A DNA stretch of 64,000 nt. Origin: Escherichia coli. Its GTDB lineage: Bacteria; Pseudomonadota; Gammaproteobacteria; Enterobacterales; Enterobacteriaceae. The position numbers were made by a program, and so were the translations under genes. Below are positions 45,442-53,434 of this stretch, one piece after another; position 1 is the first letter of the stretch, and the number at the start of each line of letters is the position of its first letter. The notes beneath the pieces are model-generated. The model saw nothing but the letters and a program-made list of their open reading frames with translations, made no database searches and had not been told where the DNA came from. The stretch lies in assembly GCF_048403405.1 (NCBI RefSeq), contig NZ_CP183129.1; one strand, 5' to 3'.

Positions 45442-45708
45442 ATGGCATTACTCGATTTCTTTCTCTCGCGGAAGAAAAACACGGCCAACATTGCAAAAGA
45501 ACGGCTGCAGATTATTGTTGCTGAACGCCGTCGCAGCGATGCAGAACCGCATTATCTGCCGCAGTTGCGTAAAGATATTCTTGAGGTCATTTGTAAATAC
45601 GTACAAATTGATCCTGAGATGGTAACCGTACAGCTTGAGCAAAAAGATGGCGATATTTCTATTCTTGAGCTGAACGTGACCTTGCCGGAAGCAGAAGAGC
45701 TGAAATAG
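45442..45708 (+). CDS. minE: cell division topological specificity factor MinE
   Basis: 88-aa product [31 protein letters not shown]... Confidence 0.97.
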
Positions 45709-45735
45709 GCCCGCTGTAAAAGCGCATTTCTCTTC

Positions 45736-45765
45736 AAGGCAGAGTCATCTCTGCCTTGCGTTTTT
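45736..45765 (+). terminator. rho-independent terminator after minCDE
   Basis: aaggcagag-tcatc-tctgcctt hairpin followed by gcgttttt. Confidence 0.6.
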
Positions 45766-46039
45766 CATCCCCCTCATCCACGTTTGATAAGAGCGGCGAG
45801 TATTCTTGCTGATGCTACTCATTGCTTCCCCCCTTTACACCTTAATGCCGTTCCCCCCACACAGATCAAATTGTTTATACCTGGCTGAGTAAATAACCTT
45901 ATTGTTAGTATGGGTATACTGGGTGATGATAACCCCGCAATTTCATTATTCATTGTTCTCCCATAGGATGAGGTTTCCCGCCGTAACTGGCGGGCTTTTT
46001 TTGCCGCAGAATTTTTCCTTTTAACACCCTGTAAACGAA

Positions 46040-46060
46040 AACTGCGCCGAAGCGCAGTTT
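46040..46060 (-). terminator. hairpin terminator downstream of the autotransporter gene
   Basis: actgcgccgaagcgcagt stem-loop with T-run on the minus strand. Confidence 0.5.
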
Positions 46061-46072
46061 AATCGTTGATGG

Positions 46073-49000
46073 TCAGAACGACCAGTTCGCACCAGCCACC
46101 GCGTTCCACGGGGATTCCACACCGGCACCATGGCTATACCCCACCCCGAGATGCCCGCTTAACGAACTGCTGAATGAGGCTTTAATACCTGCCTGATATA
46201 TTCCACGTCTGCCCGACAAATCATTGACAAAATTACCGTCATTATTCACTTTCACCCGGTTATCATCGACAAATTCTTTGCGCACAGCCGCCTTCAGCCA
46301 CGGCTCAACTTCCATGCCGTTCCCCAGACGCATGTTGTAACTCAGCGTTGCGCCCAGTTCACGATATATACTGCGGGTATCGACTGATTTCGATTCCATG
46401 CCATTGGATAAATGATATTCGGGGTTATCAGCGGTGAACCCCGTTAACGATGCATACGGCGTCAGGTTCCAGTTACCATCGGTAAATCGCATCCCGGTTT
46501 CAATGTGCCCCCCCAGCCCGTTGCTATGATAACTGCCGTTGGCGGCTCCACCGCTGCTCATTTTACCGGCTACGTTACTTTCAAAGCGGTTCAGCTTCAC
46601 GATACCGTCCAGATAGAAACCACTTTCATGTTCCCAGCTGGCATAGCCCCCCAGAGAATAACTGCCCACACTGCCATGTCCTCCACGATCAAAACCGATA
46701 TGTGAATGGGAATAACCCATAAAAGCGCCCAGCGTCGCAATCCCCTCAGGAATATCATTACGACTGTCGATCCCCACTGTCATTCCGGTCAGCGTCTGCT
46801 CAAACCCGGCACCCGCATCGGTGGTGACATTATTACGGGTGTTATACGTCGTCCCCCAGACATTATTGTTGTGTGGACTCGCTTTCATTATGTTCAACCG
46901 CTCGCGAATACTGTTTAGCTCAGCATCAAAGACCAACGGTAATGTTGCTGCCATATTGAGTACGGCAGCCGTAGAAGGCGTGATGCGTTTCTCCGGAACG
47001 GGTGTCGGCGTTGGCTCGGGAGTCGGGTCTGGATTTGGATTTGGATTTGGATTTGGATTTGGATTTGGGTTCGGATTTGGATTTGGATTTGGATTTGGGT
47101 TCGGATTTGGGTTCGGATTTGGGTTCGGGTTCGGGTTCGGATTTGGATTTGGGTTGACATTATTAGTCAGGTTCCAGTTGCTGTTGCCGTCGCTTTTCAG
47201 GACATACTCATAGGTCCCAAGATCAACGAAACCGCCGGTATTGCCCAGCGTAAACGACGCATCCCCTCCCCCTGTTTTCACCAGCGTCATCGCATCGTCA
47301 GACTGAGGGCTGACGCCGGTATCCTGAACAAAGATTTTAAAATTACCAGTGGCGTTGTTGTTGACGATCAGTTGATCGCCCCGGGAGCCTGCAACGTTGG
47401 TATGCAGGTAGAAATTACCGCTGCCGGAAAGTTCACTGGTGGTCAGCGTATTGTAGATATCGTTAGTTGTGGCAGGCGCTGATAAATAAACATCACCGTC
47501 GTTGAGTAGCAAACTGTTTACTCTATATTCGCAGTTGCTGGTGCCTGCACAGGAATTATTGCTGTTAAGCCAGACACTGCCCCGGCTGGCAGCCGTCAGG
47601 TCGGCAAGCGTCGTATCAACGCCATTGCCGATAGTGAATGTCGCGCTATCGGTAATCCGGATCGCCCCTTCGAGTTTAACTGGCGTAACATTATCCCGTG
47701 GCGTCATTAACGACAGGCTTCCTGTCGCGCCACTGACCGATGCATCCGCCAGCGTACCTGCGTAGACGATTGCCGTCCCACCAGAGACCTGTAGATCTTC
47801 TGCCCGGGCCAGAGCCTGAAACTCATCTTTTGACCGCCCAAGGGTATATTGCCCACCAGAGTTAACCTTTGTGGCGGAGTCCTGACCCAGGTTTTGCATT
47901 GCACCACCCTTGTCAACCGTGGAGTCACGGGCTTCGGTACCTGCTAATACCAATAAATTACCGCCATTTTCCAGCAACATATTGGTCGCTAAATTGCTGG
48001 CAATGGAAAAGGTGCCGTACTGGTGCGTACCGCTGATTTCAATACCGTTAGCCGTGCTCGTCTGGAGAGCGGCACCGCTGTTCTGGACGATATCTGTCGC
48101 TTTGCCATTATCGTTGACTGTCAGCGTTCCGCCTTCATTGATCGTTGTTTTTATTGCCTCTCCGTTAGCTGAAACTGTTTGTATTCCGCCGTCGTTAATT
48201 GTTGTCTCATTTGCCACACCCTCGATGATTTGTTCACCGCCAGTGAGCGTCGTGCCTGTCGCAGTGGCTTTTGTTTTGACGATCTCCCGACCGCCCGCAT
48301 TAACCTGTGTTTTGGCGGAAGTGGTGTCTGACTCCACGGTTAACACGCCGCCATTTGTCAGCAGGATATTGTTCGCCGCACCCTGCTCGATGCTGAACGC
48401 GACGCCATCAGCGCGTGTCCCTGTGACCCGCGTCGCCCTGGTGGTTGCAACCAACGCGCCCTGACTACTCTGCTGTATCCCCGTTGCGCTGCCTTTCTCC
48501 CGCACATCGAGTATGCCGCCATTGTTAAGTCTGGTGGTATATGCTACGGCCTCCTCGTGGACAATCAGCTTACCGCCAGCATCAACGATGGTATCTACCG
48601 CCGAGGTTTGAGCTACGACCGTCAGTTGGCCGGTATTTTCCAGCACAACATGCTCAGCCCTGCCTCCGGTAATAGTGAAGTGAGATGACCTCTGGTATCC
48701 ATCAATATCAGTCCCCGCGCCCGTATTGGCAACTAAAGCGCTCCCCGTGTCCAGGTAAACCCCATGTGCGATACCGCCGGTATCGACAATCAGCGTGCCT
48801 CCGGCGCGAATATTGCTGCCAGTTGCCGTACCTCCTTTCTCAACAACCTGCTTGCTCCCGGAAGAGATATTTGTTGTGTCAGCTTTCCCGCCGCTCTTGA
48901 TATTTTGCGTGCCACTGTTGATATTGGTTCCCGTAGCAATACCATGATTATAAATATTCTGTGTACCGCCATTAATTATGGTATTAGTCGCGTTCCCGGC

Positions 49001-49450
49001 AACATCCATGGCCCCGCCGTTATCTATTCGGGTCGCATCAGCTTTAGCATTCGTTAAAACTGACATTGTTCCTTTATCGTTAATTATCGTCCCTGTAGAA
49101 ATTCCTCCCTCACTAATTGTCTGGCTGCCACCGTTAATGACTGTATTATTAGCCTGCCCCTGATAAGAGCCATGACCAGATACCTCTTGATGTCCACCAG
49201 TATCAATAACACTTCCATTAGAAATCCCGCCATATACCTCCTGATTGCCGTGATTGATGATATGAGCATTATTTGTTGTACCTCGTTCATCTACTCTTTG
49301 GCTGCCGTCTACAGTCTCATCATTTACAACGCCAATAACATTAGAAGTGAAGGCCGTCATCCCAGGCGGGGCATATATCATGGCAGCTATCAATAAGGAA
49401 AGTACTGAGCGGTGAAAATAATAGCGACTGATTCTGTTCATAAATTTCAT
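46073..49450 (-). CDS. AIDA-I/pertactin-type autotransporter adhesin with (Asn-Pro)n linker
   Basis: Signal peptide, Gly/Thr-rich repetitive passenger, (NP)n tract, C-terminal beta-barrel ending ...GANWSF; start taken at internal Met (ORF track extends to 49570). Confidence 0.85.
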   Translation of the reverse strand: MKFMNRISRYYFHRSVLSLLIAAMIYAPPGMTAFTSNVIGVVNDETVDGSQRVDERGTTNNAHIINHGNQEVYGGISNGSVIDTGGHQEVSGHGSYQGQANNTVINGGSQTISEGGISTGTIINDKGTMSVLTNAKADATRIDNGGAMDVAGNATNTIINGGTQNIYNHGIATGTNINSGTQNIKSGGKADTTNISSGSKQVVEKGGTATGSNIRAGGTLIVDTGGIAHGVYLDTGSALVANTGAGTDIDGYQRSSHFTITGGRAEHVVLENTGQLTVVAQTSAVDTIVDAGGKLIVHEEAVAYTTRLNNGGILDVREKGSATGIQQSSQGALVATTRATRVTGTRADGVAFSIEQGAANNILLTNGGVLTVESDTTSAKTQVNAGGREIVKTKATATGTTLTGGEQIIEGVANETTINDGGIQTVSANGEAIKTTINEGGTLTVNDNGKATDIVQNSGAALQTSTANGIEISGTHQYGTFSIASNLATNMLLENGGNLLVLAGTEARDSTVDKGGAMQNLGQDSATKVNSGGQYTLGRSKDEFQALARAEDLQVSGGTAIVYAGTLADASVSGATGSLSLMTPRDNVTPVKLEGAIRITDSATFTIGNGVDTTLADLTAASRGSVWLNSNNSCAGTSNCEYRVNSLLLNDGDVYLSAPATTNDIYNTLTTSELSGSGNFYLHTNVAGSRGDQLIVNNNATGNFKIFVQDTGVSPQSDDAMTLVKTGGGDASFTLGNTGGFVDLGTYEYVLKSDGNSNWNLTNNVNPNPNPNPNPNPNPNPNPNPNPNPNPNPNPNPNPNPNPNPNPDPTPEPTPTPVPEKRITPSTAAVLNMAATLPLVFDAELNSIRERLNIMKASPHNNNVWGTTYNTRNNVTTDAGAGFEQTLTGMTVGIDSRNDIPEGIATLGAFMGYSHSHIGFDRGGHGSVGSYSLGGYASWEHESGFYLDGIVKLNRFESNVAGKMSSGGAANGSYHSNGLGGHIETGMRFTDGNWNLTPYASLTGFTADNPEYHLSNGMESKSVDTRSIYRELGATLSYNMRLGNGMEVEPWLKAAVRKEFVDDNRVKVNNDGNFVNDLSGRRGIYQAGIKASFSSSLSGHLGVGYSHGAGVESPWNAVAGANWSF
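47031..47153. repeat. hexanucleotide tandem repeat (GGATTT/GGGTTC)n, ~20 units, encoding (Asn-Pro)n
   Basis: Directly visible run ggatttggatttggattt...gggttcggatttgggttc; in-frame inside the autotransporter. Confidence 0.9.
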
Positions 49451-50046
49451 CCTCTGAAAAATGAATACTGAGTAGCGTCTAAGTAACCTAAGCTCGGCTG
49501 CAACATCAGCCCGCAGGCACCAGACCAGGGGATTCATCCTGAAGAGACAGCGCAGGTGTATTGTGTTCACCGCTCACCAAAGACATCATGATGAAATGAT
49601 GATATCCCGCATAAGAAAGAGGCATTTTTTAAACGCAGTGCGCTGAAGTGTAGTTGGATAAAAAATCACTCTTTTCAGATAATACTGTCGTACGCTTATC
49701 TTTCGACAATGAGGCCGTCGGCAAAATAAAATGACTAATGTAATCGTTGCTGATGAATATCTTCTGCTCACATAAAAATCACACAATAATATTGATAAAT
49801 CAGATTATCTTACCTTTACAACATTGCGTTAACAGTCAATGACACTTCTTGAATAAAAATATTGTCAATCAATGAGTTATTTCTCATTTGAGATTATTCT
49901 CATTCCCGTAAAAAACATAATTCCTATCATCACCGTCACGCTCATTTTGAATTATCTGAATAATAGCGAGCGTTCTTTAGTTAAGCAGATCTTAATTGAA
50001 GACGAAATTATTGTGTGTGCAACTTACTTAATACCGGACATCTAAG

Positions 50047-50391
50047 TTGAAGAAAAAAATACTTGCCTTCGGGCTTATCTCAGCATTGTTCTGCTCCACG
50101 CCAGCGATGGCGGATATGAATCGCACCACGAAAGGTGCATTGCTAGGCGCAGGCGTTGGTTTACTTACTGGCAATGGTGTTAATGGCGTACTGAAAGGTG
50201 CAGCTGTTGGCGCTGGTGTTGGTGCAGTAACAGAAAAAGGCCGCGACGGTAAAAATGCGCGTAAAGGTGCAAAAGTGGGTGCCGCCGTTGGTGCTGTCAC
50301 TGGCGTTCTGACCGGCAATGGCCTCGAAGGGGCGATTAAAGGTGCCGTGATTGGCGGTACGGGTGGTGCAATTCTGGGTAAAATGAAATAA
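50047..50391 (+). CDS. ymgG: Gly-rich small protein YmgG
   Basis: 114-aa product with signal peptide and GxxGxG-rich repeats. Confidence 0.85.
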
Positions 50392-50785: not shown

Positions 50786-53434
50786 TCAGAACTTATATTT
50801 CAGGCCCACCATCACTGCGGTGTCATTGTAGCCATTATCACCCAGCTGCACGCCCACATTACCCCAGACGCTGGCCGCCGGATTCAGATTGCCATTTACG
50901 CCAAGTTTAATTTCCCCCAGATTACGCGCCCCGTCTTGTTCAACTTTCACACCGTTCATTGAGACAGCAAAATCTTTACTGTTATGGATCCAGTTCATTT
51001 CAACAAAAGGTTCAAAGTCGTCACCGTGCGGACCGCTGTTTTTCTCCTGAGTACGAATAAAGGTACGGAAGCCGAGTCGGGTCTGGATGTTGTTATTTGC
51101 GTCATTCTCAATACGTGAGCCATTGGCTTCCGTGTGCGCATTATGATCGACGCCCATCCAGATAGCCTGTGCCTGTGGCTGGAAGATCCACGTATATTTC
51201 GCCGCTTCCAGACCAAAGGATTTATTCAGGGCAAAACCGTAACCCGCTTCCAGCGAGACGGTTGCACCTTTCGCGCTATAGGATTCATAGGCTAACTCAT
51301 CCCCTTTCACCGAGTTTTTAAACCAGCTATATTGCGCCCAGGCGTCAATGTATGCGCCTTTTTTACTGATGTCATCGGCAAACCAGGTGGCATACAGCCC
51401 TGCGCTATAGCCTCTGACACTCCCTTTCGAACGATAATCCGACACGCTGGAATGAGTTGAGTTGTAGTCGCGGGCATAACCAGCCATCACTCCCAAACGC
51501 CAACTGTCACTGTCGGTAAAACCACCGGTTAACAGATCCGCCCCTAACTGCGAGACGTAGCGATGCGAGGTCGTTCTCAACTGTCCGTTGCTGTCACGCC
51601 AGGCATTATGCCCGCCAATTTGACGTAGCCAAAGTCGGCTTGAACGCTCCTGTTCAGTTACAGGATCGATGTAGCGCGTTTCACCTGCACGATCGTTCAG
51701 ACGCATAACAAAAAGAGTGTTAGCGGCTGCCAGATTGGCGACGTAACTTCCAGCTTCGGGGCGCAGGACGGGGGTAGGCGCAACAGTAGGCGCTGAACTT
51801 CCTCCGGAGTTTGTTTCACCGCCGCTCGTTGCCTGGAAGTTAGTCAGATACCAGTTTTTATTGGTCGCTTCGGTATTACCTCGGGTTAATGAATATTCGT
51901 AGGCACCGGCGAAAATCCTCGAATCCTTAATAAATTCCCCATTTGATTCCCCCTCAACGCTGATAATCTCTATCCCATTTAACGTGTAAGCCCCGCTGCC
52001 CCCAGCATTGGTAACTTTTACTCGGGTTGTTCCGGAGGTATTTCCATTAATAACAACTTTATCAGTAGCTGAATTATCATCACCCAATTCAGTTCTGAGA
52101 TGCAATACGCCATTATTACCAACGTAATTTTCAGTTATTGTTAACCTTGTTGGTTCGAAATCCTTTCCATCTGCCCGGGAAATATAGACCGTACTATTGT
52201 CAACCGTGAGCTTGCTCACCGTTGAGTCAGTTTTAATATCCCAGGTACTATTATCTGAAAGCGACAGATAGGTATGAGTGCTATCATCTGTTGAAAGATT
52301 GGCTGAACCCGTTATTTTTGAATTAGATGCATCGATGGCCAAATGACCTTTAATATTATTAATAAAAACATCTGCAGCCGATGATACCTCACTATCCGTA
52401 ATGGTCACGTTACTCGTCTCATTTTTATTGTAGAGGATTTCATTTGCTGACCGTAGTGAGCTACCAGATAAAATATCTACCGTTGCTTCCTGACCATTTA
52501 TGGAAGACTCCAGCACAATTCCAGCCCCCTGATGCGCGACTGCAGATGTATTTTTCAGCGTCACCTTGCCGCCATTATAAATTTTAGCAATCGCGGCGTC
52601 AGGACCCGTTGTATGAATTTCTCCCTGGTTAAATGAAACAGTCCCCTGGCGAGCAGCGATGGCATGAGCATTGTCCCCATACGTGGTAATATCAACATCG
52701 GTTAATGTAACGCTGGCATTGGTATAATCAAGCTTGCTACCCGCCTTGACGACAGTGCCATTAGCGTAAGCGGCATAACTTTCTGTTCCGAGGGTTGTTA
52801 TCTCCCCTTTTGCCATATCCAGTTTTGCTTTGGCGTTATTTTCATTACTTCCTGTATCGGCAGTACTTTCTTCATCAAGAGAAGATACACACGCACGCGC
52901 GCTTCCGGGAGATGCACAAGCAAGAACGCCGACTGCGTGATTACCCGCAGTAACAATAAAAGTATTACCTTCGTCAGATAAATGGGGGTTAACCGAACCG
53001 TCAGTGTTGACTCTTATTATGGTATCAGTATTCAGGTTTCCATTCGTTTGACTTAGCAAACCAATTGAGTAATCCCCCGTTGTGACAATCGTATTATTAC
53101 CCTGCAAAATAACTGCACCGCCATATTCACTTACGACTGCGCTAGCTGTATATACTGTGCTTAGAGGATTATTGCCAGAAGGATATAAACCACCCGTTGT
53201 TACAATGACGCCTTTGTTAATGGTTAAATTGCTACCCTCTCCTGCAACAGATACCCCGTAACTTCCATTACCCGTTGTTATAACTAGCGCATTATCAATA
53301 TCTTTTACTTCTCCATCTTTTATTGCCACAGCATGTTTATATTCATCGTACTGAATAAACTGTTCAGCATATGCATTACCCACCGCCAGAGCAATAAGTC
53401 CTAAACTAAACCCGGGGAGTTTTTTCAGTTTCAT
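50786..53434 (-). CDS. ycgH: autotransporter adhesin YcgH, apparently full-length here
   Basis: 882-aa ORF with signal peptide MKLKKLPGFSLGLIALAVGNAYA, repetitive passenger and barrel ending ...VGLKYKF; positioned between ymgD and ymgF. Confidence 0.8.
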   Translation of the reverse strand: MKLKKLPGFSLGLIALAVGNAYAEQFIQYDEYKHAVAIKDGEVKDIDNALVITTGNGSYGVSVAGEGSNLTINKGVIVTTGGLYPSGNNPLSTVYTASAVVSEYGGAVILQGNNTIVTTGDYSIGLLSQTNGNLNTDTIIRVNTDGSVNPHLSDEGNTFIVTAGNHAVGVLACASPGSARACVSSLDEESTADTGSNENNAKAKLDMAKGEITTLGTESYAAYANGTVVKAGSKLDYTNASVTLTDVDITTYGDNAHAIAARQGTVSFNQGEIHTTGPDAAIAKIYNGGKVTLKNTSAVAHQGAGIVLESSINGQEATVDILSGSSLRSANEILYNKNETSNVTITDSEVSSAADVFINNIKGHLAIDASNSKITGSANLSTDDSTHTYLSLSDNSTWDIKTDSTVSKLTVDNSTVYISRADGKDFEPTRLTITENYVGNNGVLHLRTELGDDNSATDKVVINGNTSGTTRVKVTNAGGSGAYTLNGIEIISVEGESNGEFIKDSRIFAGAYEYSLTRGNTEATNKNWYLTNFQATSGGETNSGGSSAPTVAPTPVLRPEAGSYVANLAAANTLFVMRLNDRAGETRYIDPVTEQERSSRLWLRQIGGHNAWRDSNGQLRTTSHRYVSQLGADLLTGGFTDSDSWRLGVMAGYARDYNSTHSSVSDYRSKGSVRGYSAGLYATWFADDISKKGAYIDAWAQYSWFKNSVKGDELAYESYSAKGATVSLEAGYGFALNKSFGLEAAKYTWIFQPQAQAIWMGVDHNAHTEANGSRIENDANNNIQTRLGFRTFIRTQEKNSGPHGDDFEPFVEMNWIHNSKDFAVSMNGVKVEQDGARNLGEIKLGVNGNLNPAASVWGNVGVQLGDNGYNDTAVMVGLKYKF

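Follow-up and report, generated by a model that had tools for sequence, protein, structure and literature searches.

The 64,000-nucleotide stretch of Escherichia coli DNA analyzed here (assembly GCF_048403405.1, contig NZ_CP183129.1; the whole stretch is called the window below) carries an autotransporter gene on the minus strand, between ymgJ and minE, whose passenger and membrane barrel are joined by a spacer encoded largely by a hexanucleotide repeat specifying alternating Asn and Pro. Taken together, the observations are probably best explained by an adhesin of the YpjA/EhaD lineage at an ancestral slot beside minE, in which slippage alters the length of the Asn-Pro spacer in frame. Delimited by its open reading frame (ORF), by the coding sequence of the NCBI Prokaryotic Genome Annotation Pipeline (PGAP), by Pfam and by comparison with K-12, the gene occupies 46073..49441, encodes 1122 aa plus a stop codon, and is both a paralog of ypjA/EhaD and the intact counterpart of ycgI, a pseudogene in K-12.

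Tandem Repeats Finder located the repeat at 47030-47152 (period 6, 20.5 copies, 86% matches, score 162). Codon parsing resolved exactly 21 in-frame AAY-CCR (Asn-Pro) units at 47030..47155 on the minus strand (aa 763-804), followed by DPTPEPTPTPVP, the non-repetitive rest of the X-Pro spacer (46994..47029, minus strand, aa 805-816), which is common to ypjA too. The initial annotation had recognized an in-frame tract lying in a linker; its boundaries of 47031-47153 and its estimate of about 20 units are corrected here. The pattern (AAYCCR)4 gave 19 overlapping matches in the tract, whereas 100 shuffled versions of the window contained none. As DNA the tract is imperfect, a mosaic of the four synonymous units AACCCA (a), AATCCA (b), AATCCG (c), and AACCCG (d) in the order abcddacacabbbcabbbbbb, and the longest stretch without a mismatch is 39 bp of AATCCA. 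Terminator-like matches inside the tract on the plus strand were rejected as artefacts of G-T pairing in the repeat itself.

To describe length variation, the tract of the window was set beside 19 fetched minE-locus alleles that carry an Asn-Pro tract, 20 in all. The slipped-strand variability anticipated by the initial annotation is evident, and repeat number is far from invariant between isolates: the 20 tracts have 17 different lengths, ranging from 19 to 38 units, and the X-Pro run spans 50-88 residues over the alleles. The same range is borne out by match spans in two tables of 60 rows each. The lengths were sampled through two allele queries and one spread listing, so their distribution is that of a sample, with ranking biased toward the length of the query. 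Because flanks of the tract are 97-98% identical to ypjA as against 98-100% among alleles, an E-value cut is unfit for isolating carriers. The downstream DPTPEPTPTPVP was identical in 18 of the 20 alleles, with DPTPDPTPTPVP in the other two (L022 and L023).

All 20 tracts consist of whole numbers of 6-bp units, and translation of the ORF in 15 alleles showed an open reading frame every time, as expected from the earlier proposal that a 6-bp unit would alter linker length and leave the frame unchanged. Since tracts hold whole units and frames are open where checked, the tract changes length rather than expression state. Annotation treats 18 of the 19 fetched genes as intact (1118-1154 aa). The other one, from the porcine strain EC556, has an IS66-family insertion sequence (IS), ISCro1, at its 5' end (L016, positions 1-452), plus an annotated frameshift whose position is not mapped.

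Changes in length were confined to three perfect sub-arrays: (AACCCA-AATCCG)x, with x from 2 to 8, and two runs of AATCCA, one of 2-5 and the other of 5-15 units. The mixed units abcdd at the 5' end were constant throughout this first family of alleles. A second family, ~3% divergent, has the pure Asn-Pro array acaabacbbdddddddaddab6-8, of 26 and 28 units, and it also varies in its terminal perfect run. Slippage-driven variation in length without on/off switching is well supported by these alignments.

Over ~6.6 kb of flanking sequence, no single-nucleotide polymorphism (SNP) separates the window (21 units) from TUM14771 (22 units), EcPF15 (28 units) from SCU-105 (19 units), or ETEC1748 (27 units) from ETEC4070 (33 units), and tracts of 27, 32, 33, 35, 37, and 38 units occur in six porcine enterotoxigenic E. 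coli genomes that have 0-1 SNP over 6.1 kb. As many as 11 units separate genomes whose ~6 kb of flanking sequence shows 0-1 SNP. The same length was found in the near-identical isolates ETEC4070/4071 and ETEC6333/6334 and in three PRO_A isolates. On the clonal time scale the rate of change is high, and the assemblies give no sign of instability on the scale of a culture.

The longest ORF listed for the minus strand of the window at this position starts with GTG and spans 46073..49570 (1165 aa). The 1125-aa ORF of the initial annotation, starting from ATG at 49450 (MKFMNRIS), is real; its start is better placed at ATG 49441 (MNRISRYY), the PGAP start in the 100% identical genome NZ_CP103479 (strain 4621). 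This start, giving 1122 aa, is preferred because GAGGA lies 8 nt 5' of ATG 49441, whereas GAGG directly abuts ATG 49450.

The 1122-aa product is predicted from its sequence to be a classical (type Va) monomeric autotransporter, composed of a beta-helix passenger, a pertactin-type domain, an X-Pro spacer, an alpha-helix, and a barrel of the 12-strand type. Pfam returned nine matches to AIDA repeats at E <= 0.001 spanning residues 97-533, the Pertactin domain PF03212 at residues 644-762 (E 1.1e-45), and the Autotransporter beta-domain PF03797 at residues 864-1103 (E 2.6e-46); these residue numbers count from the 49450 start and are three higher than in the 1122-aa protein. TIGR01414, the generic autotransporter barrel, was the sole NCBIfam model above its cut-off (311 bits against 16). 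In a sequence search of the PDB, the passenger matched the solved structures of Ag43 and TibA, residues 616-760 matched residues 390-534 of P.69 pertactin (1dab), and the C-terminal region, comprising helix and barrel, aligned with the translocator units of BrkA and Vag8. Matches to circumsporozoite protein (CSP), internalin, and AcfD in the same search were rejected as compositional only.

An AlphaFold2 (AF2) model built with 40 homologs as input (mean predicted local distance difference test score, pLDDT, 76.8) places a continuous beta-helix at residues ~33-760, with short beta-strands throughout 38-759, no secondary structure at 760-820, a long helix at 822-854 (pLDDT ~85), and a barrel at 859-1121. 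Its pLDDT is below 50 for residues 1-29 and over most of 764-816. Given this model and the position of the tract, the repeat encodes most of an unstructured tether, with Pro at every second residue, between the pertactin-type domain and the pore helix. Pfam, the NCBIfam barrel model, the PDB matches, and the AF2 model together bear out the earlier description of an AIDA/pertactin-like autotransporter.

Along the minus strand, the features run as follows. The N-terminus, MNRISRYYFHRSVLSLLIAAMIYAPPGMTAF (49349..49441, aa 1 to ~31), resembles a Sec signal peptide and is a probable one, assigned by eye from its basic start and the hydrophobic run after it. The beta-helix passenger of AIDA-type repeats (47162..49345, aa ~33-760) is supported by Pfam, AF2, and PDB sequence matches, and its C-terminal pertactin-type domain, the autochaperone region (47156..47512), by PF03212 and the 1dab match. 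Beyond the spacer lie the alpha-helical segment (46880..46978, aa 822-854; AF2 and the BrkA/Vag8 alignment), expected from the model to sit inside the barrel pore, and the outer-membrane beta-barrel translocator (46076..46867, aa 859-1122; PF03797, TIGR01414, and AF2 strands).

EhaA, Ag43, and AIDA-I had been suggested as families for comparison. The closest relative is none of these but ypjA/EhaD. Membership of the Ag43 and AIDA-I families was rejected, the NCBIfam models scoring 184 and 160 bits, respectively, against a cut-off of 1200 for each, and the likeness is confined to the level of repeats. The BafA model was likewise far under its cut-off, and the NCBIfam scan turned up no YpjA-specific model. 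PGAP labels the minE-locus gene 'ypjA: adhesin-like autotransporter YpjA/EhaD', and its product is 81% identical to YpjA over residues 115-1122, with a divergent N-terminal region (~38%). Domain order is the same in both proteins; the minE-locus protein is ~400 aa shorter, because passenger blocks of 636 and 583 bp found in ypjA are absent from its gene. The two genes are homologous over a span that begins 348 bp before the minE-locus gene, takes in the conserved leader, and ends 10 bp beyond the gene; DNA identity is 87-88% for the 5' portion and 95-97% for the 3' half. The true ypjA (K-12 b2647) adjoins ssrA and the CP4-57 region and is present in ~2500 genomes; many strains carry both genes, and strain 4621 has two loci of the family. 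Because the loci differ (ymgJ/minE versus ssrA) and the two genes occur together in many genomes, the minE-locus gene is a paralog of ypjA.

The linker of ypjA, KPNPDPNPNP(KPDP)4TPDPTPTPVP, is encoded by heterogeneous codons in which the longest run with a 6-bp period is 11 bp. As a control, an evenly spread sample of 60 of the ~2500 genomes was examined. Here, the ypjA linker region had only three lengths, 801, 807, and 813 bp, which followed sequence lineage; one O157:H7 row spanned 805 bp.

At the minE locus, K-12 carries ymgI and ymgJ, both of which are in the window too, together with the pseudogene ycgI (b4521). Alignment revealed a single clean deletion of 3053 bp in K-12, extending from 30 bp 5' of the start codon into the barrel; ycgI comprises the last 344 bp of the autotransporter gene, within the barrel coding region, and both passenger and Asn-Pro tract are gone. 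The statement in the initial annotation that K-12 has small ymgI and ymgJ ORFs here was sound but missed ycgI, the 3' remnant of the same gene, and the possibility it had raised of an identical gene in K-12 does not hold, since no intact copy is present there.

A large protein search recovered a syntenic ortholog of 1475 aa and 53% identity in E. albertii, between ymgI/ymgG/ymgD and minE; the rest of its matches were mainly fragments and low-complexity word matches. As E. albertii has this ortholog in the same slot and other E. coli keep remnants, the gene predates the split of the two species and has been lost repeatedly. The earlier reading of an 'extra' autotransporter is therefore reversed: the slot is ancestral, with deletion remnants in K-12 and most E. 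coli. Among 5426 complete genomes of E. coli, 424 cover at least 80% of a query made of minE, the intergenic region, and the 3' 1.3 kb of the gene. The remainder comprise genomes with a remnant of K-12 type, which has an identical breakpoint in many lineages, including the B2 strain NU14, genomes with a remnant of O157 type that keeps the last 754 bp, and a few genomes with nothing of the gene left. Most E. coli, K-12 included, thus appear from these alignments to have lost the gene by deletion.

Spacers of the X-Pro type recur across the family. The E. albertii linker is (NPDPKPDPDPKP)4, and the spacer holds 27 X-Pro units in that ortholog and 18 in the ypjA paralog. In the dog isolate Z0117EC0005 (L024, NZ_CP098223.1), which has one family copy, the minE slot carries a long allele (coding sequence 4677 bp, ~1558 aa) with a ypjA-type KPDP linker in place of the Asn-Pro tract; either the minE-locus gene had this form ancestrally, or the allele arose through gene conversion or exchange with ypjA. 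Because X-Pro linkers occur in ypjA, E. albertii, and the dog isolate, an X-Pro spacer is ancestral to the family, and the pure hypervariable Asn-Pro array would be a derived expansion of a short NPNP seed.

Other disrupted or shortened members of the family were encountered. In the porcine O139:H1 strain W13-16 (H89), IS1203 lies within the gene, an insertion independent of that in EC556. A 1012-aa protein from ENA (P0001) has an in-frame deletion of the entire X-Pro spacer and the pore helix, relative to window aa 763-863, bounded by two 'NNV' microhomologies (…NLTNNV|TTDAG…), and is probably non-functional. Variants of 883 and 812 aa (P0002 and P0004) have just four Asn-Pro units and lack the pertactin domain. 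Many database entries (P0005, P0007, and others) are truncated proteins on Logan contigs of 2.5-3.7 kb, and some of the clusters have thousands of entries. Breaks in short-read assemblies are probable within the autotransporter gene, owing to ypjA paralogy or to the repeat; if so, surveys of presence and absence are biased.

How the tract changes, and what the change may do, can be set out as a mechanism. Replication slippage in the perfect sub-arrays (two AATCCA runs and one AACCCA-AATCCG run) would add or remove whole units, much faster than point mutation. A unit spans two codons, so its gain or loss leaves the reading frame intact and alters nothing but the length of the spacer. Spacer length would then set how far the beta-helix passenger stands off the outer membrane. 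Each unit may contribute up to ~0.6 nm of tether if extended like polyproline II, so that the observed range of 19 units could change the stand-off by up to ~12 nm, comparable in magnitude to the length of the passenger itself, which would be roughly 16-18 nm (~730 residues, with ~20 residues per 0.48-nm rung); these figures are estimates from general beta-helix geometry. From the position of the spacer, and by analogy with other surface proteins, it is plausible that such variation adaptively tunes adhesin display, much as the initial annotation proposed for the passenger. Short adhesins can be shielded by capsule, as Schembri et al. (2004, cited in PMC4076661) reportedly described. Selection on spacer length, for example to match the thickness of O-antigen or capsule, is unproven.

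Several observations weigh against this account. Loss of the gene from more than 90% of E. coli genomes speaks against a strong general benefit. Its function as an adhesin is extrapolated from YpjA/EhaD, an AIDA-I-type autotransporter that is reported to promote biofilm if over-expressed, is grouped with biofilm-forming autotransporter adhesins near the self-associating autotransporters, and has no published structure (PMC12547504, PMC9289746). An (Asn-Pro)n chain could be extended in the manner of polyproline II or more compact through Asx-Pro turns, which makes the figure in nm per unit uncertain. Finally, as near-identical isolates share a length, the tract is not unstable on the shortest time scales.

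The principal alternative, to which we give somewhat less than an even chance, is a neutral variable-number tandem repeat (VNTR) in which the spacer tolerates almost any length and the polymorphism has neither phenotype nor selection, the tract acting as a fast molecular clock in a dispensable and often lost gene. Deletion or degradation of the gene in most E. coli, the existence of IS-disrupted alleles and of one with the linker deleted, and a broad, almost continuous distribution of lengths with no evident preferred value all fit this alternative, as do the quite different spacers of the paralog and the ortholog. Against it, every unit of every allele is a synonymous Asn-Pro, with at least three third-position changes and no replacement, which hints at constraint (purifying selection) on the peptide; the hint is a weak one, since duplication can propagate blocks. 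Also against neutrality, no full-passenger Asn-Pro allele shorter than 19 units appeared among ~120 table rows and 20 sequences, a ranking-biased sample, and a lower bound on length is possible.

A stronger form of the adaptive account, in which the tract is a selected, frame-neutral length dial (a 'mini-periscope') by which clones quickly re-match adhesin reach to changes in O-antigen or capsule thickness, seems unlikely to us at present. E. coli is usually held to be poor in simple-sequence contingency loci; a selected dial, if true, would be a contingency locus in this species of a graded, length type instead of on/off.

Antigenic variation or immune decoy, with the Asn-Pro array as an immunodominant epitope whose copy number alters antibody recognition, is improbable. 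The tract is surface-proximal and repetitive, matches the (NANP) repeats of Plasmodium CSP in composition, and has a parallel in the well-known repeat polymorphism of pertactin, but the CSP matches reflect low complexity alone, and more or fewer identical dipeptides make no new epitopes. Length differences could also be artefacts of assembly or sequencing in a low-complexity region, as the apparent breakage of short-read assemblies in the gene (truncated proteins on short Logan contigs) and the complication of ypjA paralogy might suggest; we consider this very improbable, because the differences are all exact multiples of 6 bp and lie in perfect sub-arrays only, the assemblies are of RefSeq 'complete genome' level, and lengths are reproducible in related isolates, with 15 genomes sharing a 1978-bp span and pairs or triplets being identical. 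On/off phase variation through frameshifts in the tract, which a long simple-sequence repeat within a surface-protein gene might bring to mind, can be put aside almost entirely given the 6-bp unit, whole units in 20/20 tracts, and open frames in 15/15 alleles checked, the sole broken Asn-Pro gene sequenced, that of EC556, having a 5' IS66 insertion and a frameshift of unmapped position.

Slippage in a spacer of the YpjA/EhaD-type adhesin, the reading we prefer, has partial counterparts in known systems. The tract shares with simple-sequence contingency loci a hypermutable tandem repeat (up to 11 units of difference with 0-1 SNP in the flanks), but not the switching of expression by repeat change, as its 6-bp unit lies in an ORF. 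Bordetella pertactin is likewise an autotransporter with short, in-frame, Pro-containing repeats, and its pertactin-type domain has a homolog here. Copy numbers of the GGxxP and PQP repeats of pertactin differ between isolates. Those repeats form loops on or near a folded beta-helix and have few length variants, whereas the Asn-Pro tract is an unstructured spacer between passenger and translocator with a much wider range.

Stalk length in Periscope proteins (SasG, Rib, Aap, and others) varies among close relatives through identical tandem DNA repeats and has been proposed to change the exposure of a distal functional domain, and tuning of exposure has been proposed for stalk-length variation in some of the length-variable trimeric autotransporters (Cha peptide repeats, YadA stalk) (PMC9704523). 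Repeat number varies among close strains in Periscope proteins as it does in the Asn-Pro tract. Periscope repeats, however, are whole folded domains in rigid rods and change by homologous recombination between long repeats; because its unit is a dipeptide (6 bp), its region is predicted to be unstructured (pLDDT below 50), and its changes arise by slippage, the tract falls outside the Periscope definition (PMC9704523). TonB, with (Glu-Pro)n-(Lys-Pro)m, resembles the tract in having an extended, alternating X-Pro spacer, without homology. The TonB spacer extends across a cell-envelope compartment, is periplasmic and charged, and is not known to be hypervariable in length.

Upstream of the gene lies a conserved 5' leader (49442..49640, minus strand) with a 39-codon ORF (49506-49625) and a small hairpin, recognized by comparison with the ypjA locus and E. 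albertii. The ~200-nt leader hardly differs between the minE locus, the ypjA locus, and E. albertii, whose protein is only 53% identical; the comparison covers three sequences (window 49442-49640, L002 4931-5132, and L020 4801-5003), too few for covariation. Its ORF has 34-39 codons and is labeled 'hypothetical protein' or 'ATPase' by PGAP, and its hairpin, UUUCA-GAGGA-UGAAA, holds the Shine-Dalgarno sequence in the loop. An Rfam scan of 45700-50100, leader included, gave no match. On the other side, in the region between the convergent minE and autotransporter genes (45785-46002), several indels of 1-3 bp separate alleles and account for ±1 offsets in BLAST match spans. Two terminator-like hairpins occur on the plus strand of the minE-autotransporter intergenic region (45735-45758 and 45977-45994).

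A second, intact autotransporter gene of 882 aa lies at 50786-53434 on the minus strand and is labeled by PGAP 'ECIAI39_1904 family autotransporter adhesin'. In K-12 it is the pseudogene ycgH (b4491). With the counterparts of ycgI and ycgH both intact, the two neighboring cryptic autotransporter remnants of K-12 have full-length forms in this strain.

The gene class, the paralog family, the K-12 remnant, and in-frame repeat polymorphism of surface proteins were already known. Our literature searches found neither an intact minE-locus gene as the parent of ycgI distinct from ypjA, nor a 6-bp Asn-Pro VNTR and its contrast with the stable ypjA linker, either of which may still have been published. 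The ycgI pseudogene of K-12 gains a full-length parent and a mapped deletion. PGAP, and probably also adhesin-typing tools that work by similarity, merge two paralogs with different loci, passengers, and linkers as 'ypjA/EhaD'; because one label covers both, studies of 'ypjA' prevalence or association may mix the two genes. As the tract resolves isolates identical over ~6 kb of flank, it has potential use as a VNTR marker for carrier lineages. The alleles also form a natural series of 19-38 dipeptide units in which tether length may be related to autotransporter secretion and to adhesin function behind lipopolysaccharide or capsule.

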